A DNA stretch of 64,000 bases, taken from assembly GCA_040767085.1 (NCBI GenBank), contig JAXGPF010000003.1, forward strand, positions 96,001 to 160,000, given 5' to 3'. Positions 20,529 through 44,227 of the stretch are shown in pieces. The position numbers and the translations under genes were made by a program. Each line of letters opens with the position of its first letter. Position 1 is the first letter of the stretch. Source of the stretch: Kiritimatiellia bacterium (GTDB lineage Bacteria; Verrucomicrobiota; Kiritimatiellia; JAAZAB01). The notes beneath the pieces were generated by a model, which saw nothing but the letters and a program-made list of their open reading frames with translations, did not search any database and was not told the DNA's origin.

Positions 20529-20586
20529 GTCGAACGTCACCGTTCTCGCGCGGCTGTAAGCCGTCGCCAGGAACGGCTTGTTCGAC
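20529..20586 (-). repeat. attC site
   Basis: Minus strand GTCGAAC AAGCCGTTC...GAACGGTGAC GTTCGAC; 58 bp, just after the stop of 20592-21362. Confidence 0.85.
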
Positions 20587-20591
20587 CGTTT

Positions 20592-21362
20592 CTATTCCAG
20601 GATAAACATCGGTTCTGCGTTCAAGTCGGCCAAGACCGAGCTGGCGGACGCCTCTTCCTCGACTGTTCCGGAAATCGCCAGCCATACAGAACCTTCTGCT
20701 CCGCACACTCCGCCTGCCGCAACCAGTTCTGCTCGTGCGCCAGTGAGAATCGTGCATGCCTCCAGTTCCGTTACAACTTCTCCTGAAACTGGAAGCATCC
20801 GTGCGCCGACCGCGTCAGGTGCATTCAGGCGTGCGGCGATGCTGCTCAATTCGGCAGAGACACGCTTTTCGAGTCCGACAGGCAGGATGAGGCGCACGCG
20901 CCTTCCAACAACGGCCTGCAGTGCCGCCACGATTGTGCCACCTTTCGGATGCCCGATCAGTATGCCAGCCTGTTTCCGCACAAGGTCAACGGCATTTGCG
21001 CCCTTCAGAATGACATCACCTTCCTTCAGGGCATCAACAACGTCGAATATGGTCTTGCCCTTCAACCAAGCGCCTTTCTGGATCACAACATCACCCGGGA
21101 ATTGGCTCTCGTCTGGCAACCGACCGGTATCCGTCGTCTTCTCGCATGGTGGCAACGTGATTCCGCGGAAGAATCGTTGACGTGAGAACCCCTCCGCATT
21201 CCCGCATGCCGACAGCAACTCCTCGGCCACATATCCATTGGTCGTTCCAGCGACAACAACGACTGTGCCAGACTGAAGGGCCGTTCTGATTGCCGGGTGA
21301 CCCGTAAGGGCCTTCGCGATCAGTCGCTTTCCAGCAGCAGGGGTTACTATGGTCTGTATCAT
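20592..21362 (-). CDS. Conserved hypothetical protein (gene cassette)
   Basis: [49 protein letters not shown]; bounded by attC sites. Confidence 0.75.
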
Positions 21363-21383
21363 TTCATTTCTCCTATCTGTCGA

Positions 21384-21779
21384 ATCGGGATAGGGGGGGC
21401 GCCTCGCGGCGCCGCCCCTCCCACACCACCCGGCATGCGGATCACGCACCAGGCGATTCCGTGCGGTAACATATGCAACAAAGGTAGCCCTATCTCAACG
21501 AAATGTCGAGTCGGCAGCGCAATGCCCAGCCCGTCGCAACCCGGAAGTATGCCAGCCGTACAGGTAAGCCGCCAGTGCGCCGATTATCCGGCACATGCGG
21601 CATCCGCGAGTGGCTCGTCATCTCCCGTATCCTCGCCCTGATTCTCTCTGACTTTCGTTCTGATGGGCTGCCTCCCCATCCCGCCTCGCGACGACACAGT
21701 TGCCCTTTCGCTTCCCTTCGGCTTCTCCTTCACCTGGCGTGGGTACTTGCACCCACAAGTTACGTGCCATCCCCGGCAC
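21384..21779 (-). ncRNA. Internally deleted, ORF-less group IIC intron inserted in an attC site
   Basis: 5' GTGCCGGGGATGGCACGTAAC; 3' domain V/VI GAATCGCCTGGTGCGTGATCCGCATGCCGGGTGGTGTGGGAGGGG...CCCCTATCCCGAT; residual IEP-like C-terminus [15 protein letters not shown]. Confidence 0.85.
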
Positions 21780-21831
21780 GGTCCGGTTCAGCGGCGCGCT
21801 TTGGCGCGTCCGTTGCGACCGATTGTTCGGC
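21778..21831 (-). repeat. attC site split by the intron (remaining TCGAC at 21379-21383)
   Basis: GCCGAAC AATCGGTCGCAACGGACGCGCC-AAA-GCGCGCCGCTGAACCGGACC GT | intron | TCGAC. Confidence 0.8.
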
Positions 21832-22108
21832 TGTCTGTTTCTACAAAACGTCCCGCGGCATACCGGTGAAGAATGCTAGCCATGAGCGTCTGATAGGGCA
21901 GGCCATCCTCAACGGCAATCGCCTGGATTTCCTCCAAATCCTTGGATGAGATGCGAATATTGACACGCCTATTTTTGGCCTGCGTGTTCCGGGCGTAACG
22001 CACATGCCGGGCAATTTCTCGCTCACGGTTTGCAACTGGTTTCCACTCTCCGCGCTCGAAGGAGTCAAGAATATCCTGTTCTTCCTTATCAAGTTTCATT
22101 TTCTGCAT
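21788..22108 (-). CDS. Antitoxin, RHH/BrnA-like
   Basis: RVNIRISSKDLEEIQAIAVEDGLPYQTLMASILHRY; overlaps the upstream toxin gene. Confidence 0.82.
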   Translation of the reverse strand: MQKMKLDKEEQDILDSFERGEWKPVANREREIARHVRYARNTQAKNRRVNIRISSKDLEEIQAIAVEDGLPYQTLMASILHRYAAGRFVETDSRTIGRNGRAKARR

Positions 22109-22382
22109 GGTGCCCTCCCAAATATTCACGTGTTGCTTTTCGGCTGGGTATGATGGTCTTTAGAAATCGCCCGTCGTCGGATTCCGCGAACGGAACCACA
22201 TAGGCATATTCTCCGATGCGAACGACCAGAATCTGTTGTCCTGGATACCGTTCCTGATTCGGATGTTGGTAGACATCCAGAAGATCACCATTCTCGATAT
22301 GCATCACAACCTGCTCGAAGCTGATGTCACGTTCAACCTTGAGTTGCTCGTTTTTCTCTATGCTCCAGCGGTAGTAAGGCAT
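22089..22382 (-). CDS. BrnT-like type II toxin (toxin-antitoxin cassette)
   Basis: WSIEKNEQLKVERDISFE...FLKTIIPSRKATREY; own promoter-like TTGCCG-17-TAGCAT just upstream. Confidence 0.82.
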   Translation of the reverse strand: MPYYRWSIEKNEQLKVERDISFEQVVMHIENGDLLDVYQHPNQERYPGQQILVVRIGEYAYVVPFAESDDGRFLKTIIPSRKATREYLGGHHAENET

Positions 22383-22431
22383 GATTGAATGCTATCACAT
22401 TGTGTGCCTTGCGGCAACACATTTCTTTTTT

Positions 22432-22491
22432 GGCGAACGTCGCAAATCTGCCTCGGAGCGAAGCGACGTAAAATGCAGGCGCTGGTTCGGC
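22432..22491 (-). repeat. attC site
   Basis: GCCGAAC CAGCGCCTGC...GCAGATTTGCGAC GTTCGCC; 60 bp. Confidence 0.75.
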
Positions 22492-23415: not shown

Positions 23416-23503
23416 ACCGAACAGTATTATTGAGCCTACTTCGCGAATACTGACGGGGCGCATGTGATTATGTATTTATAAATCACATGTGCGCTATTGT
23501 CAA
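23416..23503 (-). promoter_or_regulatory. attI-like site with cassette promoter, copy 1
   Basis: TTGACA(23503-23498)-17-TATAAA(23480-23475), then CGAAGTAGGCTCAATAATACT-GTTCGGT; 24 bp identical to 31964-31987. Confidence 0.7.
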
Positions 23504-26103
23504 ATGCTTAATCCAGCGCCGGATGGTACATTCTCAAATACCTTTAGCGCATCCCGCCGCGTTATGACCGTGTCGTAAAGACCGATGTCCTCGCCCTCGT
23601 GTTTGTTGATGCCGGTGTATCTCAGGCTGGAGTCTTCGTAACGCTTGAACTTGTAAACCGCGTCGTTCATCAGGGCGCTGTTGAACACGCCCAAGCTGAC
23701 CAGCAACTCGAAGTCCTTGACGGTGAGCCCCGTGACTTTCCTGAAGAGGCCGGGTTCAAGTTGTGTAATGACGTCCTTCAGGGTCCGCTCGCGGTAATCG
23801 GTCAGGTACATGAAGATGGGAATCCGCGTGGCGAATTTGATGAGCTTCTCCTGAATCTGTTTGCGCAGGCTCTTGTATTCCTTCTCCTCCTGCGAAAGCT
23901 CCTTCTTTTCTTCCGCGGAAAGCTTCTCGTCGTTGGCTTCCTTGCGCGCTTTCTTGACGGCCTCGGACTTGTTGATGATCGTCGCGATGTCTTGGTTCAG
24001 ATTGCGGAAACCCTCGATGTTCATCAGGGCGTCCATCGCCTTCTTATCAGCCATCAGGCGGCGCAAGGTGTCGTTATCCACATTGACCAGGAGGGCGCTT
24101 TCCCAGCGCCGCGCCAGCAATGTGGCCGTCGTACCGCTCATGGCCATGTCGAGAATCCCGGCGGCATCAATCTGTTTCATGGAACTGCCGTCGTAAGCCA
24201 GCACCGGCAGGAAACTGATGAACTCCTCGACCTTCTTTTCCGGGTTGACCTCATTCAAGTTCAACCGGCAACTGTAATCGGCAATCTGGCGCAATGCCCG
24301 ATCGGGGGCGAAGTCGAAGACGTAGCATTCTTCCTTGATGATCTGCTCGGTGTTCGGAGATGCGCCGTCCGGGTTGCGCACCGTCCAGGGGGATTGCACA
24401 CGGAACGCCGCTTGAAAATATGTTTCCGGGCTCGACGAGTTGCGCAAAATGAGAATACCCGTCCACGGTTTCACTGTCACTCCCGTGGTCAATTTGCCGC
24501 AGGAAAGCGTGATGGTCCTGGTGGCGAGCGGATCGTCCATCGCTTCCAGCACAGGCGGCAAGGCCGCGGCGCCGATCCCGGCGGCGCTTCCCGCCGCCAC
24601 GATGATCTTGTAGTCGTGATAGAAGCGGTTTTGCCTCTTCGCCAGCAGGTTTCGCATGGCATGACAGGCCGCCACGCTGGGCAAAAACCAGAAGGAATGC
24701 GAAAGCACTCCCAGGAGCCGGACATCCGAGAACGGCATCGGCGGCTTTTGCGCGCCCAGTTTCAGGTTGTCCACACTGGCCGGCATGAACGCGCCGCGAA
24801 TCAGGTCCAGCCATTTCTGCACTTCTTCCGCGTACCTGAATTTCGCCTTGTCCCCAATGCCCTCGGCGGAGAAGAACACATTCAAATCGAACTCATTGAA
24901 CTCACCCTGCATGGCGATATCCCGGATCGCGTCGGGCAGTTGGTATGTCAAAAGCACCATTCGGGGCAGCGGGGCATATGGGTTGTTTGGGCCGTTCCAA
25001 TACCGCTTGGCGCGCTGCTCGTCGGAATACGTCCAGTTGTAAATCTGCTCTTCAATGAACTCGCCCGACGCAATGGCCCGGAACGGCGTGCCGGACAGGT
25101 AAAGATACCCGTCCGTGGTGATCGGCATGATCGTTTCATCAAAATCCTCGATGCCTTCGCCCTCGGCGAATTTTCGTTCCTTTTCATCCTCCGACTCGAA
25201 AAGCTCCTTTGCGTTTTCGCGCCAGGCTCCGTAATGGTACTCGTCCAGAATCACGCAATCCCAATGCGTGGTGTGGACCCATTCGTTCTTGGTCTTGATG
25301 CCGCCGGTGCTGGGGTTGCGGCCCAGGTAGTCCTGGAATGAGCCGAAGCAAACAAAAGGCTTTTTCTTGTCCGCTTGCTCATAGGTCAGGCCGCCCGGCT
25401 TGATGAACTGCCAGCCCCGGAAGTCAACATGGCATTTCAAGTCTTCTTCCCAAGCGCTTTGAACGGCGGGCTTGAAGGTCAGAACCAGCACCTTTCGCCA
25501 GCCCATTTTTTTCGCCAACTGATACGCAGCAAAAGTCTTGCCGAAACGCATCTTGGCATTCCAGAGGAAATGCGGCGGCTTGTCCCGGTTGCTTTTGTCA
25601 TTGCGCCAACTGGCGAAATAGGCGGCCGTCTTCTCGACCGCCGCGACCTGTTCCGGGCGCATTTGGAAATCCAGCGACCGATTTTCCTCGTTCAATTGCC
25701 CGGTCCGGACTGCGATGATCGCCGACTTGACTTGGGCCACCGTGCAACGGAACCATTCTCCGTCGGGGTTCTTGATGCCGTTAACCCGCAGCATCCGGTG
25801 CACGTCGTGGTCTGTGAACACCGTCCCGTCATTCCGCATGGCGGATTCTTCGAGAACGATCCGGTACGGCGGCCGGCCGGGCTTCTTTGTCGGATACTGC
25901 TGGGCGACGCGGCCTTGGGCATTCACGGTTGTGTAGCCGATTTTGAGCAGCCCCGCATATTGTGGGTTCGTGTCCTCGTAGGCGTAGATTGTCGGCCTCG
26001 ATGCCGGGCGCGGAGGAAAGAACTCCGGTTCATCCGCAAATGAACGCGAATGAACGCCAATAAGGGAAGAGCCTTTCTTTGATTCGAGTCTAATCGCGCT
26101 CAT
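23500..26103 (-). CDS. T5orf172/GIY-YIG-like nuclease fused to SF2 helicase (restriction-like subunit)
   Basis: IYAY..LLKIGYT..RVAQQ..GEWF N-domain; Walker A AKMRFGKT, DEYH, LSGTP, YFQAAFRVQ. Confidence 0.85.
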   Translation of the reverse strand: MSAIRLESKKGSSLIGVHSRSFADEPEFFPPRPASRPTIYAYEDTNPQYAGLLKIGYTTVNAQGRVAQQYPTKKPGRPPYRIVLEESAMRNDGTVFTDHDVHRMLRVNGIKNPDGEWFRCTVAQVKSAIIAVRTGQLNEENRSLDFQMRPEQVAAVEKTAAYFASWRNDKSNRDKPPHFLWNAKMRFGKTFAAYQLAKKMGWRKVLVLTFKPAVQSAWEEDLKCHVDFRGWQFIKPGGLTYEQADKKKPFVCFGSFQDYLGRNPSTGGIKTKNEWVHTTHWDCVILDEYHYGAWRENAKELFESEDEKERKFAEGEGIEDFDETIMPITTDGYLYLSGTPFRAIASGEFIEEQIYNWTYSDEQRAKRYWNGPNNPYAPLPRMVLLTYQLPDAIRDIAMQGEFNEFDLNVFFSAEGIGDKAKFRYAEEVQKWLDLIRGAFMPASVDNLKLGAQKPPMPFSDVRLLGVLSHSFWFLPSVAACHAMRNLLAKRQNRFYHDYKIIVAAGSAAGIGAAALPPVLEAMDDPLATRTITLSCGKLTTGVTVKPWTGILILRNSSSPETYFQAAFRVQSPWTVRNPDGASPNTEQIIKEECYVFDFAPDRALRQIADYSCRLNLNEVNPEKKVEEFISFLPVLAYDGSSMKQIDAAGILDMAMSGTTATLLARRWESALLVNVDNDTLRRLMADKKAMDALMNIEGFRNLNQDIATIINKSEAVKKARKEANDEKLSAEEKKELSQEEKEYKSLRKQIQEKLIKFATRIPIFMYLTDYRERTLKDVITQLEPGLFRKVTGLTVKDFELLVSLGVFNSALMNDAVYKFKRYEDSSLRYTGINKHEGEDIGLYDTVITRRDALKVFENVPSGAGLSI

Positions 26104-26109
26104 TCGCGT
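26034..26109. repeat. Short-period palindromic repeat (CGCGAATGAA type) overlapping the helicase start
   Basis: CCGCAAATGAACGCGAATGAACGCCAAT ... ATTCGAGTCTAATCGCGCTCATTCGCGT. Confidence 0.7.
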
Positions 26110-26951
26110 TTCCCTATCCTCGACTGCTTTCCCGCCGGCGGCAGGAAGTTCTCGCCGGTCACTACCTTGCGCCCCGTCTTCTGCTCCAACTCCCGCCGCG
26201 CCCGTTTGGCGATGCGTCCGCCTTTCTTCCCGGCCTCGGCATTTTCGCCCATGCCGATCGCTTCCACGCTTTCGGCGATCTGGCGGGTGGACAATTCCGC
26301 CAGCGCGGTGAAGATCAGCTCCGCCTCGCTCATGTGATCACGCAGGTTCTGCGCCTTGAGCCCTTTAATAGCCTTATGCTTCTTGACCGAAACCCCGCTC
26401 CATTCCTGGTGGATGATATTGGTCAGGATGGAATATTCCTCCTCGCCTTTGATCTCGTGGTCCTGCCAATAATCGGTGAGCTTGTTGCGGGTTTCCTGCC
26501 CCATCATCCGCTGCTGAATCCATTTCTCGCTGCGGCCGTGCTTCTTCCAGTATTCCCGTGCCCGGTCCAGCGACCGCACCGGGTCGCTCATGTCCTGGAT
26601 GCGCTCATACCCTACCTTGGCCAGCCAGAGTTTGATCGGTTCTGCCCTGGGACTGGGGACGGATTGAATAATCCGCAGAAGTGTTTCAGGGTCAGCAACA
26701 TCCGTCAGATAGGATTTTCCGTCAGCCGCAGGCAGTTTCAGTCGGTTACATTTTGTAACCGACTCACTTCCCTCGCTTTTAAGCCGGTTTTTCAGGACTT
26801 TCCAGTAATTGCGGGCGGCCTGATAGTCCGGTTGCTGGATCAGCGCCGCGACGATGTCCACCACGGAGAAATACCAGGTCTCCGACTTCTTGTCGTAAAC
26901 GCGCCGGATTTTGAAATCCTCAAAGACAGCCAATGCTTTTTCGTTTGTCAT
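26100..26951 (-). CDS. Bro-N domain (antirepressor-like) protein
   Basis: IRRVYD...WYFSVVDIV...ARNYWKVLKNRL...LRIIQSVPSPRAEPIKLWLAKVG. Confidence 0.85.
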   Translation of the reverse strand: MTNEKALAVFEDFKIRRVYDKKSETWYFSVVDIVAALIQQPDYQAARNYWKVLKNRLKSEGSESVTKCNRLKLPAADGKSYLTDVADPETLLRIIQSVPSPRAEPIKLWLAKVGYERIQDMSDPVRSLDRAREYWKKHGRSEKWIQQRMMGQETRNKLTDYWQDHEIKGEEEYSILTNIIHQEWSGVSVKKHKAIKGLKAQNLRDHMSEAELIFTALAELSTRQIAESVEAIGMGENAEAGKKGGRIAKRARRELEQKTGRKVVTGENFLPPAGKQSRIGKRE

Positions 26952-26967
26952 GGTTGACCTGCCGAAT

Positions 26968-27150
26968 TATCCACAGATGACGCAGATTTTTGCAGATTAT
27001 TTTCGGTGGATCCGGTATCTGCGTTAATCCGTGGAATCAGCGAATTATTCATCTGCTTCATCCGGAATGATTATCCGCAGATGGCGCAGATTTTCGCAGA
27101 TTATTTTCGGCGGATTCCGGTATCTGCGTTAATCTGTGTAATCTGTGGAT
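26968..27150. repeat. Tandem palindromic units built from about 9-nt GCAGAT repeats
   Basis: CCRCAGATNRCGCAGATTTTYGCAGATT...ATCTGCGTTAATC twice; same unit at 33001-33130 and 34577-34750. Confidence 0.85.
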
Positions 27151-27152
27151 TA

Positions 27153-28758
27153 TTATGCCTGCTCATCGACCCCGCTTTCCGCCTTGTCATTATCCGCTGG
27201 CATTGGGCGGACAATGGAGGAAATAAAATCAATCTCAGCCTGCGTTAGCTTGAAATGCTTGTTAAGTTTGTCATCAGTCCATATTTCTGTCATTGGAAGT
27301 TGAGGAACGAAGGCGAACCGCTCCTTTGTGATATGTTGCGTGTTTTTCCGCAATCCAACCAAAAATCGGAAGAAGTGGGTTCGCATGTACGCAGCAAGGT
27401 GTTCTGCCTCGTCCTTTGTCTTGTATGACCCAATGACGATGTAAGTTTCCGTACAGGCACTGGGCGGGCTTGCCACAATAGGTTTGCCCATAATCATTCG
27501 AGGGTATTCCCGGGCTTCGCCGCCTTCGGACTTCCAGCGTGATCGTAACCCACATATGATGTCAATAACCTTCCAAAGATCAATCATATCGACGCCAACA
27601 GTAATGTCTGATTTCGGATCTTTTGGCCCTACTCGCCATTTCTGCCAACGCAAAATAATTTGATCACCTTGTCCTTCTGAGGCCGTCACGTAAGTTCTAA
27701 GTCCAAAATGGTTTTTGTCTAGCAGACACTTGCTCGCTCATGCGACAAAGAAGGATCTTTTCTTGACAAGGACCCTTCGTCCAAATGATTGGGAAACAGC
27801 CTTATTGAAGCGAGCAAACGTATGAAAGTCGGAAACTCGTTGAGAGGTAAGCGTAGTCGAAACAACGTCGTTCATCGTTATGCACGTTCGTGACTTCGAG
27901 CAAGGTCCACGAGTAATCACGCTCCCATAAGAAATAACATATTCCATCCGCTATAACCTTGACACCGGGAAATACGTCGGAAGCAATCGGATAATCAACA
28001 AGATGAGAGATACGTCGGTCGTGTAGCATTGCATCTCGGAACTCGTCAAGACCTTTGCCGCCAGCGAACCAGCGTGAGGGTATTATCATGGAAAGGAAAC
28101 GAGGGTTCAGCTTCTTGGCTTGCTCAACGAAGCGATTGTAGATGGGGGATGCCCCTGTGCTTTCGCCTGCATCACTCAATTGGTACGGTGGATTACCGAT
28201 AATTACATCAAATTTCATTTTGAAAATTCCCTCATGTTTGTCGGTGTGGATGAACTCATATGCATGGCTTTCATACTCTCGCCCGCGGTCGTACTCCTCC
28301 TTGCTGGCGCGACAAAACACACAACGGCCATTTACCCATGTGTGTTCCACTCGCCCGAAACGGATGTTGCCGGCGGGCTTGTCAAACAACTCACAGACGG
28401 AATATTTGCCGTTGGCGGTCTTGGAGCAATAGACGGAGCGGCGCGACAGCAGAGCGGTCAGTTCCGTAATTGCGAGCCCGTAGAGTTGATTTTTGAAGAT
28501 GTGGTTCATGCGCTGCAGGCGGTCAGGAATCTGGGCCTCCAGCCCCTTGTCCAGCCGCTTGGCGATCTCGCGCAGAAATACGCCCGACTTGCAACCGGGG
28601 TCAAGAAAGGTGGCTGTCTTGTCGCTCCAAAGTTCCTGCGGCAGCAGGTCCAGAATCCGGTTCACGAGTTGCGGCGGCGTGAACACCTCGTCACTACTCA
28701 AGTTGGCGATACAAGACAGCACATCCGGATTATAGTTGTCTGTGTTCATCTGCGTCAT
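27153..28758 (-). pseudogene. Eco57I-like adenine DNA methyltransferase, frameshifted (decay or indel errors)
   Basis: [29 protein letters not shown]-terminal CTETY...RFLV..RKNTQH in another ORF (27153-27689); breaks between about 27500 and 27950. Confidence 0.8.
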
Positions 28759-29194
28759 CCGCAGACCTCCTCTGTTTCAACCGCAGATAGCGCAGATGAA
28801 CGCAGATTGTAAACAAAGCGCTTGTACTCGAGTCGGATAGCGCCAAAGTTGATCAGCAGAGCTTTGTGCAGCCTGGATGCTTTCAGGTAGTTGATCACTT
28901 GTGCCTCCTCCGTCCCGAAAGCTGCTTCAGCGCCTTGAGTTCGACAATCACCGCTCCGGAGCAAACGTAATCGGCTTTGTAGAACGTGTTCAATGGCTTA
29001 CCGCGATAGAACACCGGCAGTTCCTTTTCGCGTTCGTAAGGGATGCCCCTGAACCGAAACTCGCGTTCCAGCGCTTCCTGATAGACTGCTTCCAGAAAGC
29101 CAGACCCAAGGTCTGAATGCACGGCCATAGCTGCTCCGATTATCGCGTATGTCTCCGCATCTTTATTACCGTTATCTGCGTCAATCTGCGTCAT
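28755..29194 (-). CDS. GxxExxY family protein (one frameshift near 28915)
   Basis: [25 protein letters not shown]...ADY...IVELKA, continuing as [11 protein letters not shown]...LLINFG in the next frame; the break is in a G run. Confidence 0.88.
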
Positions 29195-29852
29195 CTGCGG
29201 ATTCCTTTTTCCCCAACTCCAGGAAATGCATGGGCGGATATTCGCGGATTGGCGTTGGGATGAAGACGTCTTCCCCCAGATCGGAGAAAAGCGGCAGTTC
29301 CTTCATGCCCTCGTGCGTCAGCAGTCCGTGAAACGTGAAGTCCCTCCGTTTGAGCATGCTGCCGTTGACCGGCGACCATTCAGAAAATACGATATAATCC
29401 GGTTTTTTGCCGACTGTTTTCAAGGTCAGGGCGTCGCCCCAGATGATATTGCGCCCAAGGATGAAACGGACCGCCTCGCGGCATTTGTTCTTGGCGCGGT
29501 CCTCGAACAGCCGGGAATAAAAGTCACAATCGAACACGCCAAAAAGCCGGTGCCGGCACTGGTGGACATTGTCCTCCAGGATGTCAATGCCGTAGATCGA
29601 AGAGACGGCCAGGACGGCATAACGCTCGAAGTCCAGTTGCGACTTGCCGTAGCGCTTTTCCACCACGGCGAGTTTCCGTTCCAGAATGGCCGTCAGGAAA
29701 TTCCCATTGCCGCAAGCCGGTTCGAGGAAGCGGGAATCAATCCGGTCCGTTTCCTGTTTCACGAGGTCGAGCATGGCGTTGACCTCGCGTTTGCCGGTCA
29801 ACACCTCGCCATGCTCGGCGACCCGCTGTTTCGATATGACTTGCGATTCCAT
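29181..29852 (-). CDS. Short SAM-binding DNA-methyltransferase-like protein with no visible catalytic motif IV
   Basis: RVAEHGEVLT, FLEPACGNGNFL, IYGIDI, NIIWGDAL; no NPPY/DPPY. Confidence 0.8.
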   Translation of the reverse strand: MESQVISKQRVAEHGEVLTGKREVNAMLDLVKQETDRIDSRFLEPACGNGNFLTAILERKLAVVEKRYGKSQLDFERYAVLAVSSIYGIDILEDNVHQCRHRLFGVFDCDFYSRLFEDRAKNKCREAVRFILGRNIIWGDALTLKTVGKKPDYIVFSEWSPVNGSMLKRRDFTFHGLLTHEGMKELPLFSDLGEDVFIPTPIREYPPMHFLELGKKESADDAD

Positions 29853-29936
29853 CTGTGATTTATTTTCGTGGCCTGACTCACTCAGAAGCGCCATTTCACG
29901 TATCACCAGCAGGCTCGATGCTCTTGTTCGAGCGCT

Positions 29937-30107: not shown

Positions 30108-30296
30108 ACCCACCTCTAACACCGGCTGCGGAATTGGGGCCTGTTTCAGTTTCGGCACAATAACTACGCGAGGTATTATGACTCTTTCGTTAAGGACGAT
30201 AAAACGATATCATCCAGCAAGTCCTCTGCGATCACGTTGGGTTGGGAAATCAGAGCTTCATATTCTTTTCTGGTCATCTTTTATCCTTTTGCTCGA

Positions 30297-30434
30297 ATCA
30301 GGATAGAGGGGCGACTCGCGACTGCCTCCCCACCCCGCCTCGTGACGACGCAGTTGCCCTTTCGCTTCCCTTCGGCTTCTCCTTCACCTGGCGTGGGTAC
30401 TTGCACACCACAAGTTACGTGCCATCCCCGGCAC
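30297..30434 (-). ncRNA. 138-nt group IIC intron remnant inserted in an attC site
   Basis: First about 110 nt nearly identical to the 5' end of 21384-21779, joined directly to CGCGAGTCGCCCCTCTATCCTGAT (domain VI end); domain V absent. Confidence 0.8.
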
Positions 30435-30498
30435 GCTCAGGCGCACCGGACGCCTGAAGCGACAGCGGAAGGCGGTACGGTGACGCCTGTTGTTCGGT
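30433..30498 (-). repeat. attC site split by the intron remnant (remaining TCGAG at 30292-30296)
   Basis: ACCGAAC AACAGGCGTCACCG...CGGTGCGCCTGAGC GT | intron | TCGAG. Confidence 0.8.
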
Positions 30499-31157: not shown

Positions 31158-31217
31158 ACCGAACGTCGCAAATCAGCGGCGCGGTTTACCGCGTACGCTG
31201 GATTTGTCTTGTTGGGT
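31158..31217 (-). repeat. attC site
   Basis: ACCCAAC AAGACAAATCCAGCGTACGCGG-TAAA-CCGCGCCGCTGATTTGCGAC GTTCGGT; 60 bp. Confidence 0.85.
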
Positions 31218-32048: not shown

Positions 32049-32597
32049 ATATTTAATCTATTGACTATCAACTGATTATCCTGATCGCCTGCCTTCAAGA
32101 TCGGCTTTATGCATATCCATGAATTAGGCTTTATGCCGACAAACATCATAATCTGGATCAATGTAATTCATAAAGACTACCTGGAACGCTTTCTCGAAAA
32201 TATTTGATTATTTTAGGGATAGCTCCATTTTTTCAACACAGGCGCACACTGCTCGCAGTCAGATTACCTCAAAGCCATCCCCCATCTCAACGAAATGTCG
32301 AATCGGCAGCGCAAAACCAACGTTCATAACGCAATCCTGATTTATATCATTCGAACCGGATTATTAATTTATAGGACTGACCCCCTCTGTCTGACAAACG
32401 GTCATAGATGGGCTTGCCAGCGCGATAGTACGCCAAATGTTGGACAAAACTGACAACCAGTGGGTACTGGTTTCGGAATATGTCGGAATCGTATTTCATT
32501 CTTTGACACAACGTCGCGAGTCACCGGACAGTGTAAGACGCGCTCCGGCGTAGCGCACAGGGTCACAGGCGCACATGGTCAGACCTCAAATTAAAAC

Positions 32598-32984: not shown

Positions 32985-33131
32985 CATCCACAGAAGATTT
33001 ATCCGCAGATTACGCAGATTTTCGCAGATTATTTTCTGAGGATCCGGCATCTGCGTTAATCTGCGTAATCTGTGGATTATTTCTCTGCTTCATCCGGAAT
33101 GATCATCCGCAGATTACGCAGATTTTCACAG
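32985..33131. repeat. GCAGAT palindromic repeat unit
   Basis: One full unit of about 104 bp plus the start of a second, matching 26968-27150. Confidence 0.85.
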
Positions 33132-33141
33132 GCACGTGTGA

Positions 33142-33726
33142 TCACCGCCGCGGTTTACCGCGTACGCCGGATTTGCTTTTTTGCGCTTTTAATTTCAGAC
33201 GTTCCCGAATTTGTTTGAATTGGTCGCGCATGCCTTCGGCGACAGACCATCTTTCGATTTCTTTGATGTCTATCTTATTATTGCAGGCTACGGCAACCGC
33301 TTGGTCAAGGCACTGTCGATCATGATCGTGATAGAACCAAGTGAGTCTGTCTTTGACACAGTCGGTGGGCGATATGATCAGGAGCATTCCAGTGGCTGTT
33401 TTAATCTTTAGAATGTCCTTAACAGGTTCTTCCCCGACGGCTGGGGGGCCTTGAGGAAACTCGATAAACAGGTCGGTATCCGGGTGTTTGAAATATCGTC
33501 CGTTTTCGGAAAATCCCAGTTCCTGCATTGCCGCGCGAAGCTCGCTGCGCTTGGGTGCCATTAGCGCAGTGTGTATCAGGTCCAAGTCCATTGACAGATA
33601 TTTCCCCCGGCTGTAGATTGAGACACAGGCCCCGCCGGACAGCACCACGTCTATGCCTCTGACGCGCAGGCGCTCCTGTATGAAAGCGGCAAGTTCCGCT
33701 CTGTCCATTTCGCTGATTGACTTCAC
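33142..33726 (-). CDS. Nucleotidyltransferase-fold protein (possible toxin of a TA pair)
   Basis: VVLSGGACVSIYS...SMDLD (GG..DxD); ends in an attC remnant. Confidence 0.7.
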   Translation of the reverse strand: MKSISEMDRAELAAFIQERLRVRGIDVVLSGGACVSIYSRGKYLSMDLDLIHTALMAPKRSELRAAMQELGFSENGRYFKHPDTDLFIEFPQGPPAVGEEPVKDILKIKTATGMLLIISPTDCVKDRLTWFYHDHDRQCLDQAVAVACNNKIDIKEIERWSVAEGMRDQFKQIRERLKLKAQKSKSGVRGKPRR

Positions 33727-34544: not shown

Positions 34545-34576
34545 TTTACAGGCGCACAGGGCCAGACTTCAAATTA

Positions 34577-34750
34577 GGATTACGCAGATTTTCGCAGATT
34601 ATTATCAGAAGATCCGGCATCTGCGTTAATCTGTGAAATCTGCGGATTATTTCTCTGCTTCATCCGGAATGATCGTCCGCAGATTACGCCGATTTTCGCA
34701 GATTATTATCAGAAGATCCGGAATCTGCGTTAATCTGCGTAATCTGCGGA
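34577..34750. repeat. GCAGAT palindromic repeat, nearly two tandem units
   Basis: Same unit and same linker TTCTCTGCTTCATCCGGAATGAT as 33001-33130. Confidence 0.85.
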
Positions 34751-34893
34751 TTATTTCTTCCCATTGGACGCGTGGCGGTCAAGAGCCTGACCGTTCTACC
34801 AAATTCAGGACAATTACGAAAATATTAATAAGTCGGAACAGACGGCTCACGGCACGTTCGCCCTCCAGCGGAAGCAGAGCGGGACGGGGGCCG

Positions 34894-36227: not shown

Positions 36228-36285
36228 GTCTGTGTCATCCGCGGATTATTTTTTATCCACAGATTACGCAGATTTTCGCAGATTA
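36228..36285. repeat. GCAGAT repeat arms, partial unit
   Basis: TCTGTGTCATCCGCGG...CCACAGATTACGCAGATTTTCGCAGATT. Confidence 0.7.
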
Positions 36286-36483
36286 TTTTACCTGAATACG
36301 GCAAACGGAAAATCCTCTCACCCGCCTTCGTCAAGACTACGGTGGGCAAGCCCAAGCCACCAAGAAAGCACCAGCAGGAACTGCCGCATAGCAGCATGTT
36401 TTCCTTCACCGCTCGTCCTTCGTGGCTTAGTGTCTTTGTGAGATAATAAAGCGGGTTTCCACGGGAAGTTACTGAACCTGAAT

Positions 36484-42065: not shown

Positions 42066-43748
42066 TCAGGGCAAGGGAAATTCCGCCGTCATGTCCAGCA
42101 CCTCGCTCCGGATGCTTTGCAGGAGCTGGGCATTCTTGTGATCGCGCACCACTGCGCCGATCCACGCGGCGATCCGGCGCATTTCAGGCTCTTTCATGCC
42201 GCGCGTGGTGACGGCCGGGGAGCCGACCCGGATGCCGGAAGTGACAAAGGGCGTTTTGGTGTCGAACGGGATCATATTCTTGTTCACGGTAATGCAGGCC
42301 GCGTCCAAGGCGGTGGCGATATCCTTGCCGCTTACCCCGGCGGGCGTCAGGTCCACCAGCATCAGGTGGTTATCCGTGCCCCCGGAAACAATCCGCAGTC
42401 CTTCAGCTTTCAGGCCTTCCGCCAGGGTCTGGGCATTGCGCACGACCTGTTCCTGGTAGGTCTTGAATTCCGACTGCAACGCCTGGTGGAAACAGACGGC
42501 CTTGGCGGCGATGATATGCATCAAGGGGCCGCCCTGCATGCCCGGGAAGATCTGCCGGTCAATATCCTGCGCAAATTGTTCGCGGCACATGATGATGCCG
42601 GCGCGCGGGCCGCGCAGGGTTTTATGCGTGGTGGAGGTGACAAAATGAGCGTGCGGCACCGGGTTGGGATGGTAGCCGGCCGCCACCAGTCCGGCGATGT
42701 GGGCCATGTCGACCATCAAATACGCCGAAACGCTGTCGGCAATCTGGCGGAACCGCTTGAAATCCAGGATGCGGGAATAGGCGCTGGCGCCCGCGACGAC
42801 GAGCTTGGGCTTGTACGCCTCGGCCAACCGGGCCAATTCGTCATAATCAATCTGCTCGGTCTCGCGGTTGACGCCGTAATGCATGACATTGTAATACTTG
42901 CCGGAAAAATTCACTTTCATCCCGTGGGTCAGATGCCCGCCATGCGCCGGATCCATGGCCAGCATGCGGTCGCCGGGCTTCAGCACCGCCAGGTAAACCG
43001 CCAGGTTGGCGGAGCTGCCGCAATGGGGTTGCACGTTGACGTGTTCGGCGCCGAACAATTCCCGGGCCCGGTCAATCGCCAGTCTTTCGGCATCGTCCAC
43101 GTAAGCGCACCCGTTATACCAGCGCTTGCCCGGGTAGCCCTCGGCGTATTTATTGGTCAAGAGCGAGCCGGCGGCCTCGCGCACGGCGCGGCTGACGTAA
43201 TTTTCCGAAGCGATCAGCTCCAGGTTTTCGCGCTGGCGCCGCGCCTCGTTGCGCAAGGCGGCGTAAATTTCCGGGTCCGTCTCGCCGATTTCCACCGGGT
43301 CAACCATGTTGCAGGTGTAAGCGTGGATTTTGTTCACCCGCCGCTGGTGCCGCTCGCTTTTGTCGAAATCCTCGTCCAGCCAGGCGGTCAGCACCGCGCG
43401 GGCCTCCTCGATGCTAATCAATTCGCCGCCCAACACCAGCACGTTGGCGTTGTTGTGCGCGCGGGCCATCTTGGCCATGCGCGGCGTCAGGCACAGCGCC
43501 GCGCGCACGCGCGGAAACTTGTTGGCGGTAATGCTCATGCCGATGCCGGTGGTGCAGATCAGCAAGCCCTGGTCCACCGCGCCCTGCGAAACCCGGTCCG
43601 CCACCAGCGCGGCGTAATCCGGGTAATCCACCGACGTCCGGTTGAAACAGCCCAGGTCTTCCGTCTGCATGCCGCGGGCCGCCAGCGATTCCAGCAGCGC
43701 CGTTTTCATTTCAAATCCGCCATGATCGCAACCTACCGCTATTTTCAT
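42066..43748 (-). CDS. glyA: Fusion of ribose-5-phosphate isomerase B and serine hydroxymethyltransferase
   Basis: N-terminal GCDHGG, DYPDY, CTTGIGM, HNNAN (RpiB); then [26 protein letters not shown] (SHMT). Confidence 0.95.
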
Positions 43749-44227
43749 TTGGACCCCTTTTGTAGAAATAAAATCATATCCAGCAAGGCGGCGTCAATCT
43801 CGTCCCGGATTTCCCGGTAAACGGCCGCCGAACATCCGATCGGGTCGGCAATATCGCGGCCCGCGGCCGCCTTCCGCCCGAAACCGGCAAGCAGCCGCGC
43901 TTTACCGCCGGCGGCGGGAAACCACATCCGGATTTCCCGGATGTGCCCGTCCGTCATGGCCGCAATCAACTCCGCCCCGTCTGCCAGTTCCTGTGTCAGA
44001 AGCCGGCTGCGGTGCGGGGTCAAATCAATGCCTTTTTCCCGTAAAACTTCGATCGCCGCCGGGCTGGCCATCAGGCCCGGCACGGCATGCAATCCCGCGG
44101 AACTGACGGTATAATCCGCGCTGCCGCGCAGGTAATGGCGCAAAAGGTATTCCGCCATGGGGCTGCGGCAGACATTGCCGGTACAGACAAAAACGATACG
44201 CTTGGGTTCCTTCCCCCTCAAAATCAC
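43745..44227 (-). CDS. Low-molecular-weight protein tyrosine/arginine phosphatase
   Basis: [19 protein letters not shown]. Confidence 0.92.

Follow-up and report, generated by a model that had tools for sequence, protein, structure and literature searches.

What interrupts the R' core of an attC site in a chromosomal cassette cluster of a Kiritimatiellia-like bacterium, and can the insert still act as an intron? An earlier reading of the locus, made from the sequence alone (the sequence-only reading), had described an ORF-less group IIC intron co-oriented with the cassettes and had proposed a different mode of attC targeting. We followed up this proposal in the window, by which we mean the whole 64-kb stretch of DNA that was analyzed. 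The explanation that we consider highly probable is that the locus carries two decayed remnants left by group IIC introns whose lineage inserts in the top strand of attC sites.

All genes between about 20 and 34 kb of the window are encoded on the minus strand. On this strand, five intergenic sites (A–E), which did not derive from an exhaustive attC search, showed the anatomy of attC sites: an R'' with an AAC end just past a stop codon, an imperfect hairpin of 58–70 nt, a short spacer, and an R' beginning with GTT. Such repeated attCs are those of a cassette array or CALIN. The sites and the cassettes around the insert are located as follows.

20529..20586, minus strand: attC A, 58 nt, uninterrupted; closes the downstream cassette
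20592..21362, minus strand: ORF of the downstream cassette, 256 aa, no Pfam match
21379..21383, minus strand: rest of the R' core of attC B, TCGAC; first bases of the downstream cassette
21778..21831, minus strand: left part of attC B, with R'' GCCGAAC (21831-21825), stem-loop, 5-nt spacer, and G-T of the R' core (21779-21778)
21841..22382, minus strand: upstream cassette, with a 97-aa ORF and an 83-aa partner ORF
22431..22491, minus strand: attC C, uninterrupted; weak fold
30292..30296, minus strand: rest of the R' core of attC D, TCGAG
30433..30497, minus strand: left part of attC D, ending at G-T of R'
31158..31217, minus strand: attC E, 60 nt, uninterrupted

The cassette ORFs all lie on the minus strand, each with an attC downstream. 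A hand count in attCs A, B, and D made the minus-strand 5' arm 1 nt longer than the 3' arm; attC E did not fold into one hairpin, and counting by hand along its sequence gave a 5' arm 2 nt longer. The extra extrahelical bases of an attC belong to the R''-L'' arm. The same asymmetry as in A, B, and D was seen in an aadA1 attC of which the orientation is known from the gene; this attC is the site of a related intron, L001, on the Escherichia coli plasmid pEC732_IMP14. The order of ORFs and attCs and the asymmetry of the arms therefore identify the minus strand as the attC top strand, and the strand assignment made in the sequence-only reading is not reversed. No tyrosine-recombinase domain was detected in the 63 window ORFs scanned, so that, within the window, the sites form an attC cluster without an integrase; IntI may lie outside the window. 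Nor was a promoter-like site found on the cassette strand between 20400 and 22600. The 256-aa ORF has a ribosome-binding site and a start codon about 20 nt past the insert in attC B, and the 97-aa ORF gave weak matches to DUF4258 (E = 2.7e-5) and BrnT_toxin (E = 7.2e-5), both under the curated cut-offs.

attC B has the central GCGC..GCGC hairpin and the layout of spacer and GTT that are common to the uninterrupted attCs A, C, and E. Its R' core is split as GT^TCGAC (...GGACC-GT / insert / TCGAC). Direct reading of the sequence confirmed that the insert lies inside GTTCGAC and that its excision restores a core exactly complementary to the R'' GTCGAAC of attC A in the next cassette (20586-20580). 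Removal of the insert in silico also let attC B fold into a 59-nt attC-like hairpin. The earlier placement on the top strand, co-oriented with the cassettes and at or one base from the G/TT crossover, was likewise upheld, the insertion point being one base 3' of that crossover. The insert and the parts recognized in it are given below, where IEP stands for intron-encoded protein.

21384..21777, minus strand: group IIC intron remnant copy 1, 394 nt, at GT^T of the R' of attC B; 5' and 3' homology, RF00029, and maturase remnants
21664..21777, minus strand: domain I stub, canonical intron nt 5 to about 118; nucleotide identity to relatives
21552..21663, minus strand: frameshifted IEP remnant, start of the X/maturase domain, about aa 252–289 in L041 numbering; tblastn
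21470..21583, minus strand: remnant of the IEP C-terminus (end ...ALPxRxF..GLP.L), with an internal deletion; tblastn
21384..21458, minus strand: domains V and VI; RF00029 and a 22-sequence alignment

The intron origin of copy 1 was examined at both ends. A scan with Rfam group II models, which the sequence-only reading had suggested, was negative at the larger scales: gathering thresholds gave no match in the whole window, and a 1.2-kb search at E ≤ 10 returned no group II family and only chance matches of snoRNA or lncRNA type. When 416 nt were searched, RF00029 (Intron_gpII) matched 21384-21458 on the minus strand over its full model (positions 1–77) with 27.1 bits (E = 0.002), which is below its gathering score of 40; two ltrA-carrying introns used as controls scored 38.1 bits (L001) and 25.4 bits (L002). 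The 3' 76–80 nt of copy 1 matched 163 plasmid records (70 from Sinorhizobium and 36 from Escherichia); in both of the records that were opened (n = 2) the match lay directly downstream of ltrA and in its orientation, and identity to this ltrA-adjacent DNA of plasmid introns was 82–88%. A miniature element of the IS200/IS605 or IS1111-attC type and a carrier of a bridge RNA, which the terminal hairpins had suggested, were dropped on account of this ltrA-adjacent homology.

Domain V in copy 1 carries a CGC triad with a G-U pair and a 2-nt bulge; in the domain VI that follows, an A is bulged at a distance of 8 nt from the 3' end, which reads ...GAU. CGC is the class C form of the domain V triad. 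Alignment of 22 sequences gave 27 predicted pairs, 9 of them with compensatory changes, and the helix, the triad including the G-U pair, and the bulged A are all retained in the window copy. This succession of domains V and VI was found in copy 1 only.

The 5' 240 nt of copy 1 matched nothing in the plasmid collection at E ≤ 1e-3. The first 112 nt or so were 86–94% identical to intron 5' ends from genomes of Verrucomicrobiota, Kiritimatiellia, and Lentisphaerae, with the query starting at the exon GT (21779). Over query nt 1–116, identity was 91.5% to L076 (Kiritimatiellia), 88.9% to L060/L050 (Lentisphaerae), and 86.3% to L057; L014 (Verrucomicrobia) matched at 93.8% over nt 1–63 and 84.4% over the last 147 nt, and L028 at 85.2% over nt 1–162. 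L001 was 73.5% identical over 117 nt at the 5' end and 82.5% over 80 nt at the 3' end. The closest relatives of copy 1 belong to the PVC group, in agreement with the Kiritimatiellia-like host, in which an RpiB-SHMT fusion protein showed 94% and 83% identity to proteins named 'Kiritimatiellia bacterium'.

These homologies trace copy 1 to a group IIC intron, and the class proposed in the sequence-only reading stands. We also considered that the insert might not derive from an intron at all, being instead a long-variant attC, a miniature inverted-repeat element, or a structured RNA with a hairpin resembling domains V and VI. The lack of any Rfam family at gathering score would fit such an origin, as would the weak, unremarkable single-sequence fold z-scores (copy 1, −2.5 and −2.75 on its two strands; copy 2, described below, −1.6 and −1.0). 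Three independent homologies to RT-bearing introns, namely the 5' end of domain I, the maturase, and domains V–VI, are nevertheless arranged in the expected order and lie on the expected strand, and the junctions agree with those of all 20 relatives in which both were mapped. We regard a non-intron origin as extremely improbable.

Next, we determined the 5' boundary. The sequence-only reading had left open whether the GT at the junction was exon or intron. Relatives were collected by scanning species-representative genomes with one 20-mer from the 5' hairpin, which yielded 101 loci, mostly from Beta- and Gammaproteobacteria and from metagenome-assembled genomes of the PVC group; 100 had enough flank. 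The junction CGT|GTGTGCC (exon CGT, intron GUGUGCC) was present in 88 of these 100, GUGU was kept in 90, and CGT directly before GCC occurred in none. Both window copies read CGT|GCCGGGG; they have no GUGYG 5' terminus, and GUGU is missing from 2/2. The three uninterrupted window attCs have the spacer followed by GTT at the equivalent position. Because of the relatives' junctions and these uninterrupted attCs, the GT is attributed to the attC and the element is 394 nt long without GUGU, which settles the ambiguity. On this alignment, the apparent "GUGCC" start is a chimera of the exon GT and intron positions 5–7, and what is missing from both copies is the first four intron bases, including the 5' splice site. 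Of the element described earlier as 396 nt long with an intron-like 5' end and domains V/VI, the two domains are borne out by RF00029, while the length has to be corrected and the 5' end proved chimeric.

The interior of copy 1 was compared by tblastn with the IEPs of 21 relatives, which mapped colinearly and in shifting frames onto nt 117–310. The colinear pieces in two frames had E-values of 0.003–0.03 against a target of 0.8–2.7 kb; individual E-values in this mapping were modest (0.003–0.07) apart from that of the C-terminal piece. With the whole window as target, the IEP of L013 matched 21407-21583 (E = 4.6e-6), the sole match at E ≤ 1e-3 in 64 kb, and the window therefore holds no intact IEP gene. 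Frameshifted pieces are all that remains of the RT/maturase ORF of a mobile intron. DNA homologous to 21552-21663 is also present in L014 and L028. A MAFFT alignment that placed nt 117–165 on canonical domain I was judged to be forced, because these nucleotides map colinearly to the maturase.

Neither RF02001 nor RF01998 matched copy 1 at E ≤ 10 in the 416-nt and 1.2-kb searches, while the two models scored 117–140 and 36–60 bits, respectively, in the control intron L001 and the relatives L013, L041, L044, and L052; over all controls, the first range was 109–140 bits. The length of copy 1 is taken up by domain I (about 112 nt), maturase debris (about 195 nt), and domains V–VI (75 nt), so that neither distal domain I nor domains II and III can be accommodated. 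A full domain I carrying EBS1 was not found, nor were domain II, J2/3, and domain III; the absence of distal domain I and domains II–III rests on the negative model searches together with the maturase mapping. The loop GGGCACGUGACC was found in six of eight aligned relatives, with its ACGU core kept in a seventh (L057), and lies in the part that copy 1 has lost. We took it as the candidate EBS1 because ACGU pairs with the exon ACGU or GCGU.

These data bear on the possibility that copy 1 is intact: an ORF-less group IIC intron, transcribed together with the array and still able to splice, perhaps aided by a maturase in trans, that represents a new mode of attC targeting. Its domains V/VI are intact and show lineage-specific compensatory changes, its length of 394–396 nt is near the size of minimal IIC ribozymes, and ribozyme-complete ORF-less members do exist in the family: L044 (670 nt) and L052 (734 nt) each contain RF02001, RF01998, and RF00029. 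Copy 1 itself, however, gives no RF02001 or RF01998 signal, is filled with maturase debris, and has lost both GUGU and the part that bears the candidate EBS1 loop; the second copy has no domain V, and insertion in the top strand has already been reported. An intact intron is accordingly most unlikely. The description as an ORF-less intron has to be abandoned: judged by its content, copy 1 is an internal-deletion remnant rather than an ORF-less intron with a working ribozyme.

The second insert interrupts attC D, which is split in the same manner as attC B (...GAGC-GT / insert / TCGAG).

30297..30432, minus strand: intron remnant copy 2, 136 nt, in attC D

Copy 2 is a domain I stub fused directly to the 3' half of domain VI, and domain V is absent from it. 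It is 93% identical to copy 1 over 128 nt, without an equivalent of 21423-21667 of copy 1. The flanks of the two copies differ on both sides, and the copy 2 breakpoint differs from that of copy 1, whereas several lineage-specific substitutions and the loss of GUGU are common to both. The earlier claim of two intron copies therefore holds in that a second attC is split, although what splits it is only 136 nt long and without domain V.

To place these insertions, we compared the target sites of the relatives. All 20 relatives with both junctions mapped are inserted at CGT^T in GTT-RRR-like cores, with GTT followed mostly by purines (GTTAGGC in four, GTTGGGC in three). Eight of the 20 sites passed a strict attC test requiring a complementary R'' and a hairpin; some of the 12 failing sites may be terminators, or attCs with an R' tail from the next cassette. 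A test based on AC..GT pairing, which was too strict, accepted 1/87 relative sites and 16/661 control sites. Among the 73 loci with at least 600 nt upstream, the longest upstream frame was co-oriented with the intron in 64 and opposite in 9. RT-bearing relatives, the mapping of which the sequence-only reading had proposed as a check, thus proved to occupy GT^T in cores resembling R' and to run in the direction of the upstream gene; they are not R''-targeting introns. The window copies share the position at GT^T of R', the co-orientation, and the homology at the 5' end of domain I and in domains V–VI. To judge from these sites, top-strand attC insertion looks like the normal habit of the whole lineage.

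Based on the relatives, and by analogy with the use of terminator hairpins by class C introns, the intron RNP would recognize the top-strand attC hairpin together with CGT/T. Reverse splicing would then take place just 3' of this hairpin, between the GT and the T of GTTRRRY, and insertion at the top-strand GT^T would leave the intron co-oriented with the cassettes. Later internal deletions would have stripped the ribozyme core and most of the IEP gene. The window copies, as far as their retained parts tell, can neither splice nor move on their own; a full-length helper may be present elsewhere in the genome, of which the window covers 64 kb only.

The point at which domain I meets the maturase suggested a further possibility. 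This breakpoint is common to copy 1 and L028, although the two lie in different attCs and different genomes; L028 occupies an attC of aadA type, and its contig is binned as Verrucomicrobiota. The breakpoint falls in the heptamer (G/A)CGAAAG, which is at the junction in copy 1 and L028 and is also found in the intact domain I of L057, L060, and L076. The deleted form itself may therefore have spread: both window copies and L028 would stem from one already-deleted element that multiplied as a non-autonomous derivative, possibly through RT template switching by a full-length helper, gene conversion of new full-length copies, or integrase exchange at G^T. The GUGU loss and the lineage-specific substitutions in both window copies, despite their differing flanks, would agree with such a history, and L028 keeps GUGUG. 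The G^TT crossover lies one base upstream of the insertion, so that an exchange at this point would replace the upstream attC arm without altering the junction. Such exchange, however, cannot account for the differing downstream flanks, and the breakpoint of copy 2 is a different one. Recurrent microhomology-mediated deletion would also give the same junction in copy 1 and L028 if the maturase gene of the lineage carries the heptamer, the loci recovered having included no full-length copy from the PVC group; L028 is seen for only 171 nt before the contig edge, and a remnant would have to multiply without the ribozyme core needed for reverse splicing. We consider this derivation unlikely, if less so than an intact intron.

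The loss of GUGU deserves separate consideration, as simple independent decay does not readily explain why it is identical in two copies whose flanks are unrelated. One hypothesis is slippage in the (GT)3 run. Two others would gain weight if the deleted form is a multiplying non-autonomous element and the loss records a regular process rather than decay, a view to which we give little credence. The first candidate invokes a cryptic 5' splice site that lies four bases inside the intron: pairing of GUGU to the ACGU loop taken as EBS1 is possible with two wobbles, and GUGU could mimic the exon's pairing partner. PMC1702495 describes IIC introns as using alternative 5' sites and as splicing as linear molecules. 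[quoted passage not shown]

Returning to the favored explanation, two decayed remnants of a top-strand-inserting lineage, we conclude that a sense-oriented group IIC intron in all likelihood entered the attC cluster on at least two occasions, and that its copies then decayed at their insertion sites. Since the R' core is cut one base past the IntI G^TT crossover, attCs B and D are probably unusable by IntI, which would lock the flanking cassettes in pairs; neighboring cassettes are thus probably fused by the remnants. If the array is transcribed, the remnants would add 394 or 136 nt of 5' leader to the downstream gene.

Finally, we compared the window copies with known systems. Classical IIC-attC introns are described in PMC3001079 and PMC7923331 as antisense to the cassettes, inserting at the R'' end of the bottom strand with TTGT/T as IBS1/IBS3, and in PMC4424553 as lacking an endonuclease domain. 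Our Kl.pn.I3 control (NZ_KX711879) agreed with this description, on which the sequence-only reading had relied: its ltrA is antisense to blaIMP-4, its gene-proximal junction reads TTTGT^T, and the intron begins with GUACG. The window copies resemble S.ma.I2 and Kl.pn.I3 in belonging to class C and in lying at GT^T after an attC hairpin, but they are their mirror image, inserted within the attC in the top strand at the R' end and in the sense orientation. The exon motif also differs, being CCGT/T and GCGT/T in the window and (A/G)CGT/T in the relatives instead of TTGT/T. The IEP debris in copy 1, about 60 aa, is too little for a tree.

The proposed difference from classical IIC-attC introns is therefore real, but the mode is not new. 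Top-strand attC insertion is a known mode that is rarely discussed: the review PMC7923331 cites one case in Enterobacter cloacae, and L001 has the same layout, being inserted at GT^TAGAT of the aadA1 attC with blaOXA-10, aadA1, ltrA, and qacEdelta1 all co-oriented. L001 and copy 1 share the position at GT^T of R', the co-orientation with the cassettes, and the 3' end ...CCCGAU. Unlike the window copies, L001 is a complete retroelement, with GUGUG, full domains I–III (RF02001, 117 bits; RF01998, 54 bits), and a 444-aa ltrA. The literature covered by full-text search described neither deleted sense-oriented copies nor a lineage-wide top-strand habit. What appears in reviews as a single odd case looks here like the habit of a lineage.

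Fragmented group II introns in cassette arrays or CALINs have been described (UHB.F1 and H.ha.F1/F2; PMC7923331). Like the window copies, these are degenerate through truncations, frameshifts, or internal deletions and lie among cassettes that include toxin–antitoxin cassettes, some of them in attC clusters without an integrase. According to the same review, UHB.F1 is a 5'-truncated antisense IIC-attC intron and the H.ha fragments are of class E (IIB), whereas the window copies are sense-oriented, of class C, and internally deleted with both ends kept. Bacterial ORF-less group II introns (Simon et al. 2008, in the summary given in PMC4424553) share with the window copies the lack of an intact IEP gene and the presence in the lineage of relatives that could supply the IEP; as summarized there, the described ORF-less introns keep a complete ribozyme, as do L044 and L052, and the window copies do not. 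Recognition of terminator hairpins by class C introns is described in PMC4424553 and PMC1702495. The attC-like RNA motif of PMC5737381 is a different motif and has no bearing on the window element.

The sense orientation sets the lineage apart in its potential effects as well. Sense introns, unlike antisense IIC-attC introns, can be spliced from cassette transcripts, so that their influence on IntI recombination and on the expression of cassettes should be unlike that of the classical IIC-attC introns.

Beyond the two intron remnants located in attC sites, a third short piece was found at window positions 32280–32314 (−), matching the C-terminal maturase remnant in copy 1 (the group IIC intron remnant in attC B) at 94% identity across 35 nt. 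In the flanking region viewed (32200–32340), the next stretch, with the end ...GCTATCCC, resembled a decayed domain VI end. This piece is probably a further intron remnant, possibly originating from a separate insertion. Other features of the window are listed next.

Repeats, attC-like site, and other genes in the window
23500–29906: block of defence-type genes, comprising an 867-aa protein with T5orf172 and ResIII helicase, a Bro-N protein, an Eco57I-type N6 methylase, a PD-(D/E)XK protein, and an MmeI-like methylase fragment
26966–27160, 32998–33153, 34568–34760, 36229–36303: ~104-nt unit family composed of palindromic words AATCTGCG/CGCAGATT
32238–32266, 32565–32593, 34548–34576: a 29-nt repeat, ACAGGCGCAC..., present three times at 69–90% identity
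33140–33188 (−): degenerate attC-like site, its centre GCGGTAAACCGCG common to attC E
42066–43748 (−): fused RpiB-serine hydroxymethyltransferase gene, 560 aa
57991–59001 (−): 336-aa ORF with an IS200-like Y1 transposase domain

The degenerate attC-like site carried GTGCC at the R' position, the same five letters as the intron-remnant junctions, and continued directly into a ~104-nt repeat unit. These units lay between cassette-like genes, frequently as tandem pairs, and were immediately adjoined by two of the three copies of the 29-nt repeat. The ~104-nt units do not qualify as classical attC sites; they are candidate REP- or MITE-like repeats. The block of defence-type genes, lying between attC C and attC D, contained no attC.

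The Y1 transposase domain was confined to the first ~120 residues of the 336-aa ORF, the length of which is unusually great for TnpA. The RpiB-serine hydroxymethyltransferase fusion was common to the Kiritimatiellia/Lentisphaerae matches, some of which included an extra low-molecular-weight phosphatase domain; in the window, this phosphatase was encoded by its own gene (43745–44227), not fused to the RpiB-serine hydroxymethyltransferase.

Among the relatives of the intron, five loci (L044, L052, L045, L023, and L054) contained introns of the same family as the window copies, 670–784 nt in length and without a gene for an intron-encoded protein. All three Rfam group II models (RF02001, RF01998, and RF00029) were present in L044 and L052, the two of these five loci that were scanned. 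They appear to be genuine bacterial ORF-less introns with a complete ribozyme, a kind described as rare in reviews. At another locus, on a contig binned as uncultured Verrucomicrobiota (L028), the attC hosting the intron was near-identical to the attC that accompanies aadA1/aadA2 in clinical class 1 integrons, a likeness due either to sharing of a cassette or to mis-binning of the contig.
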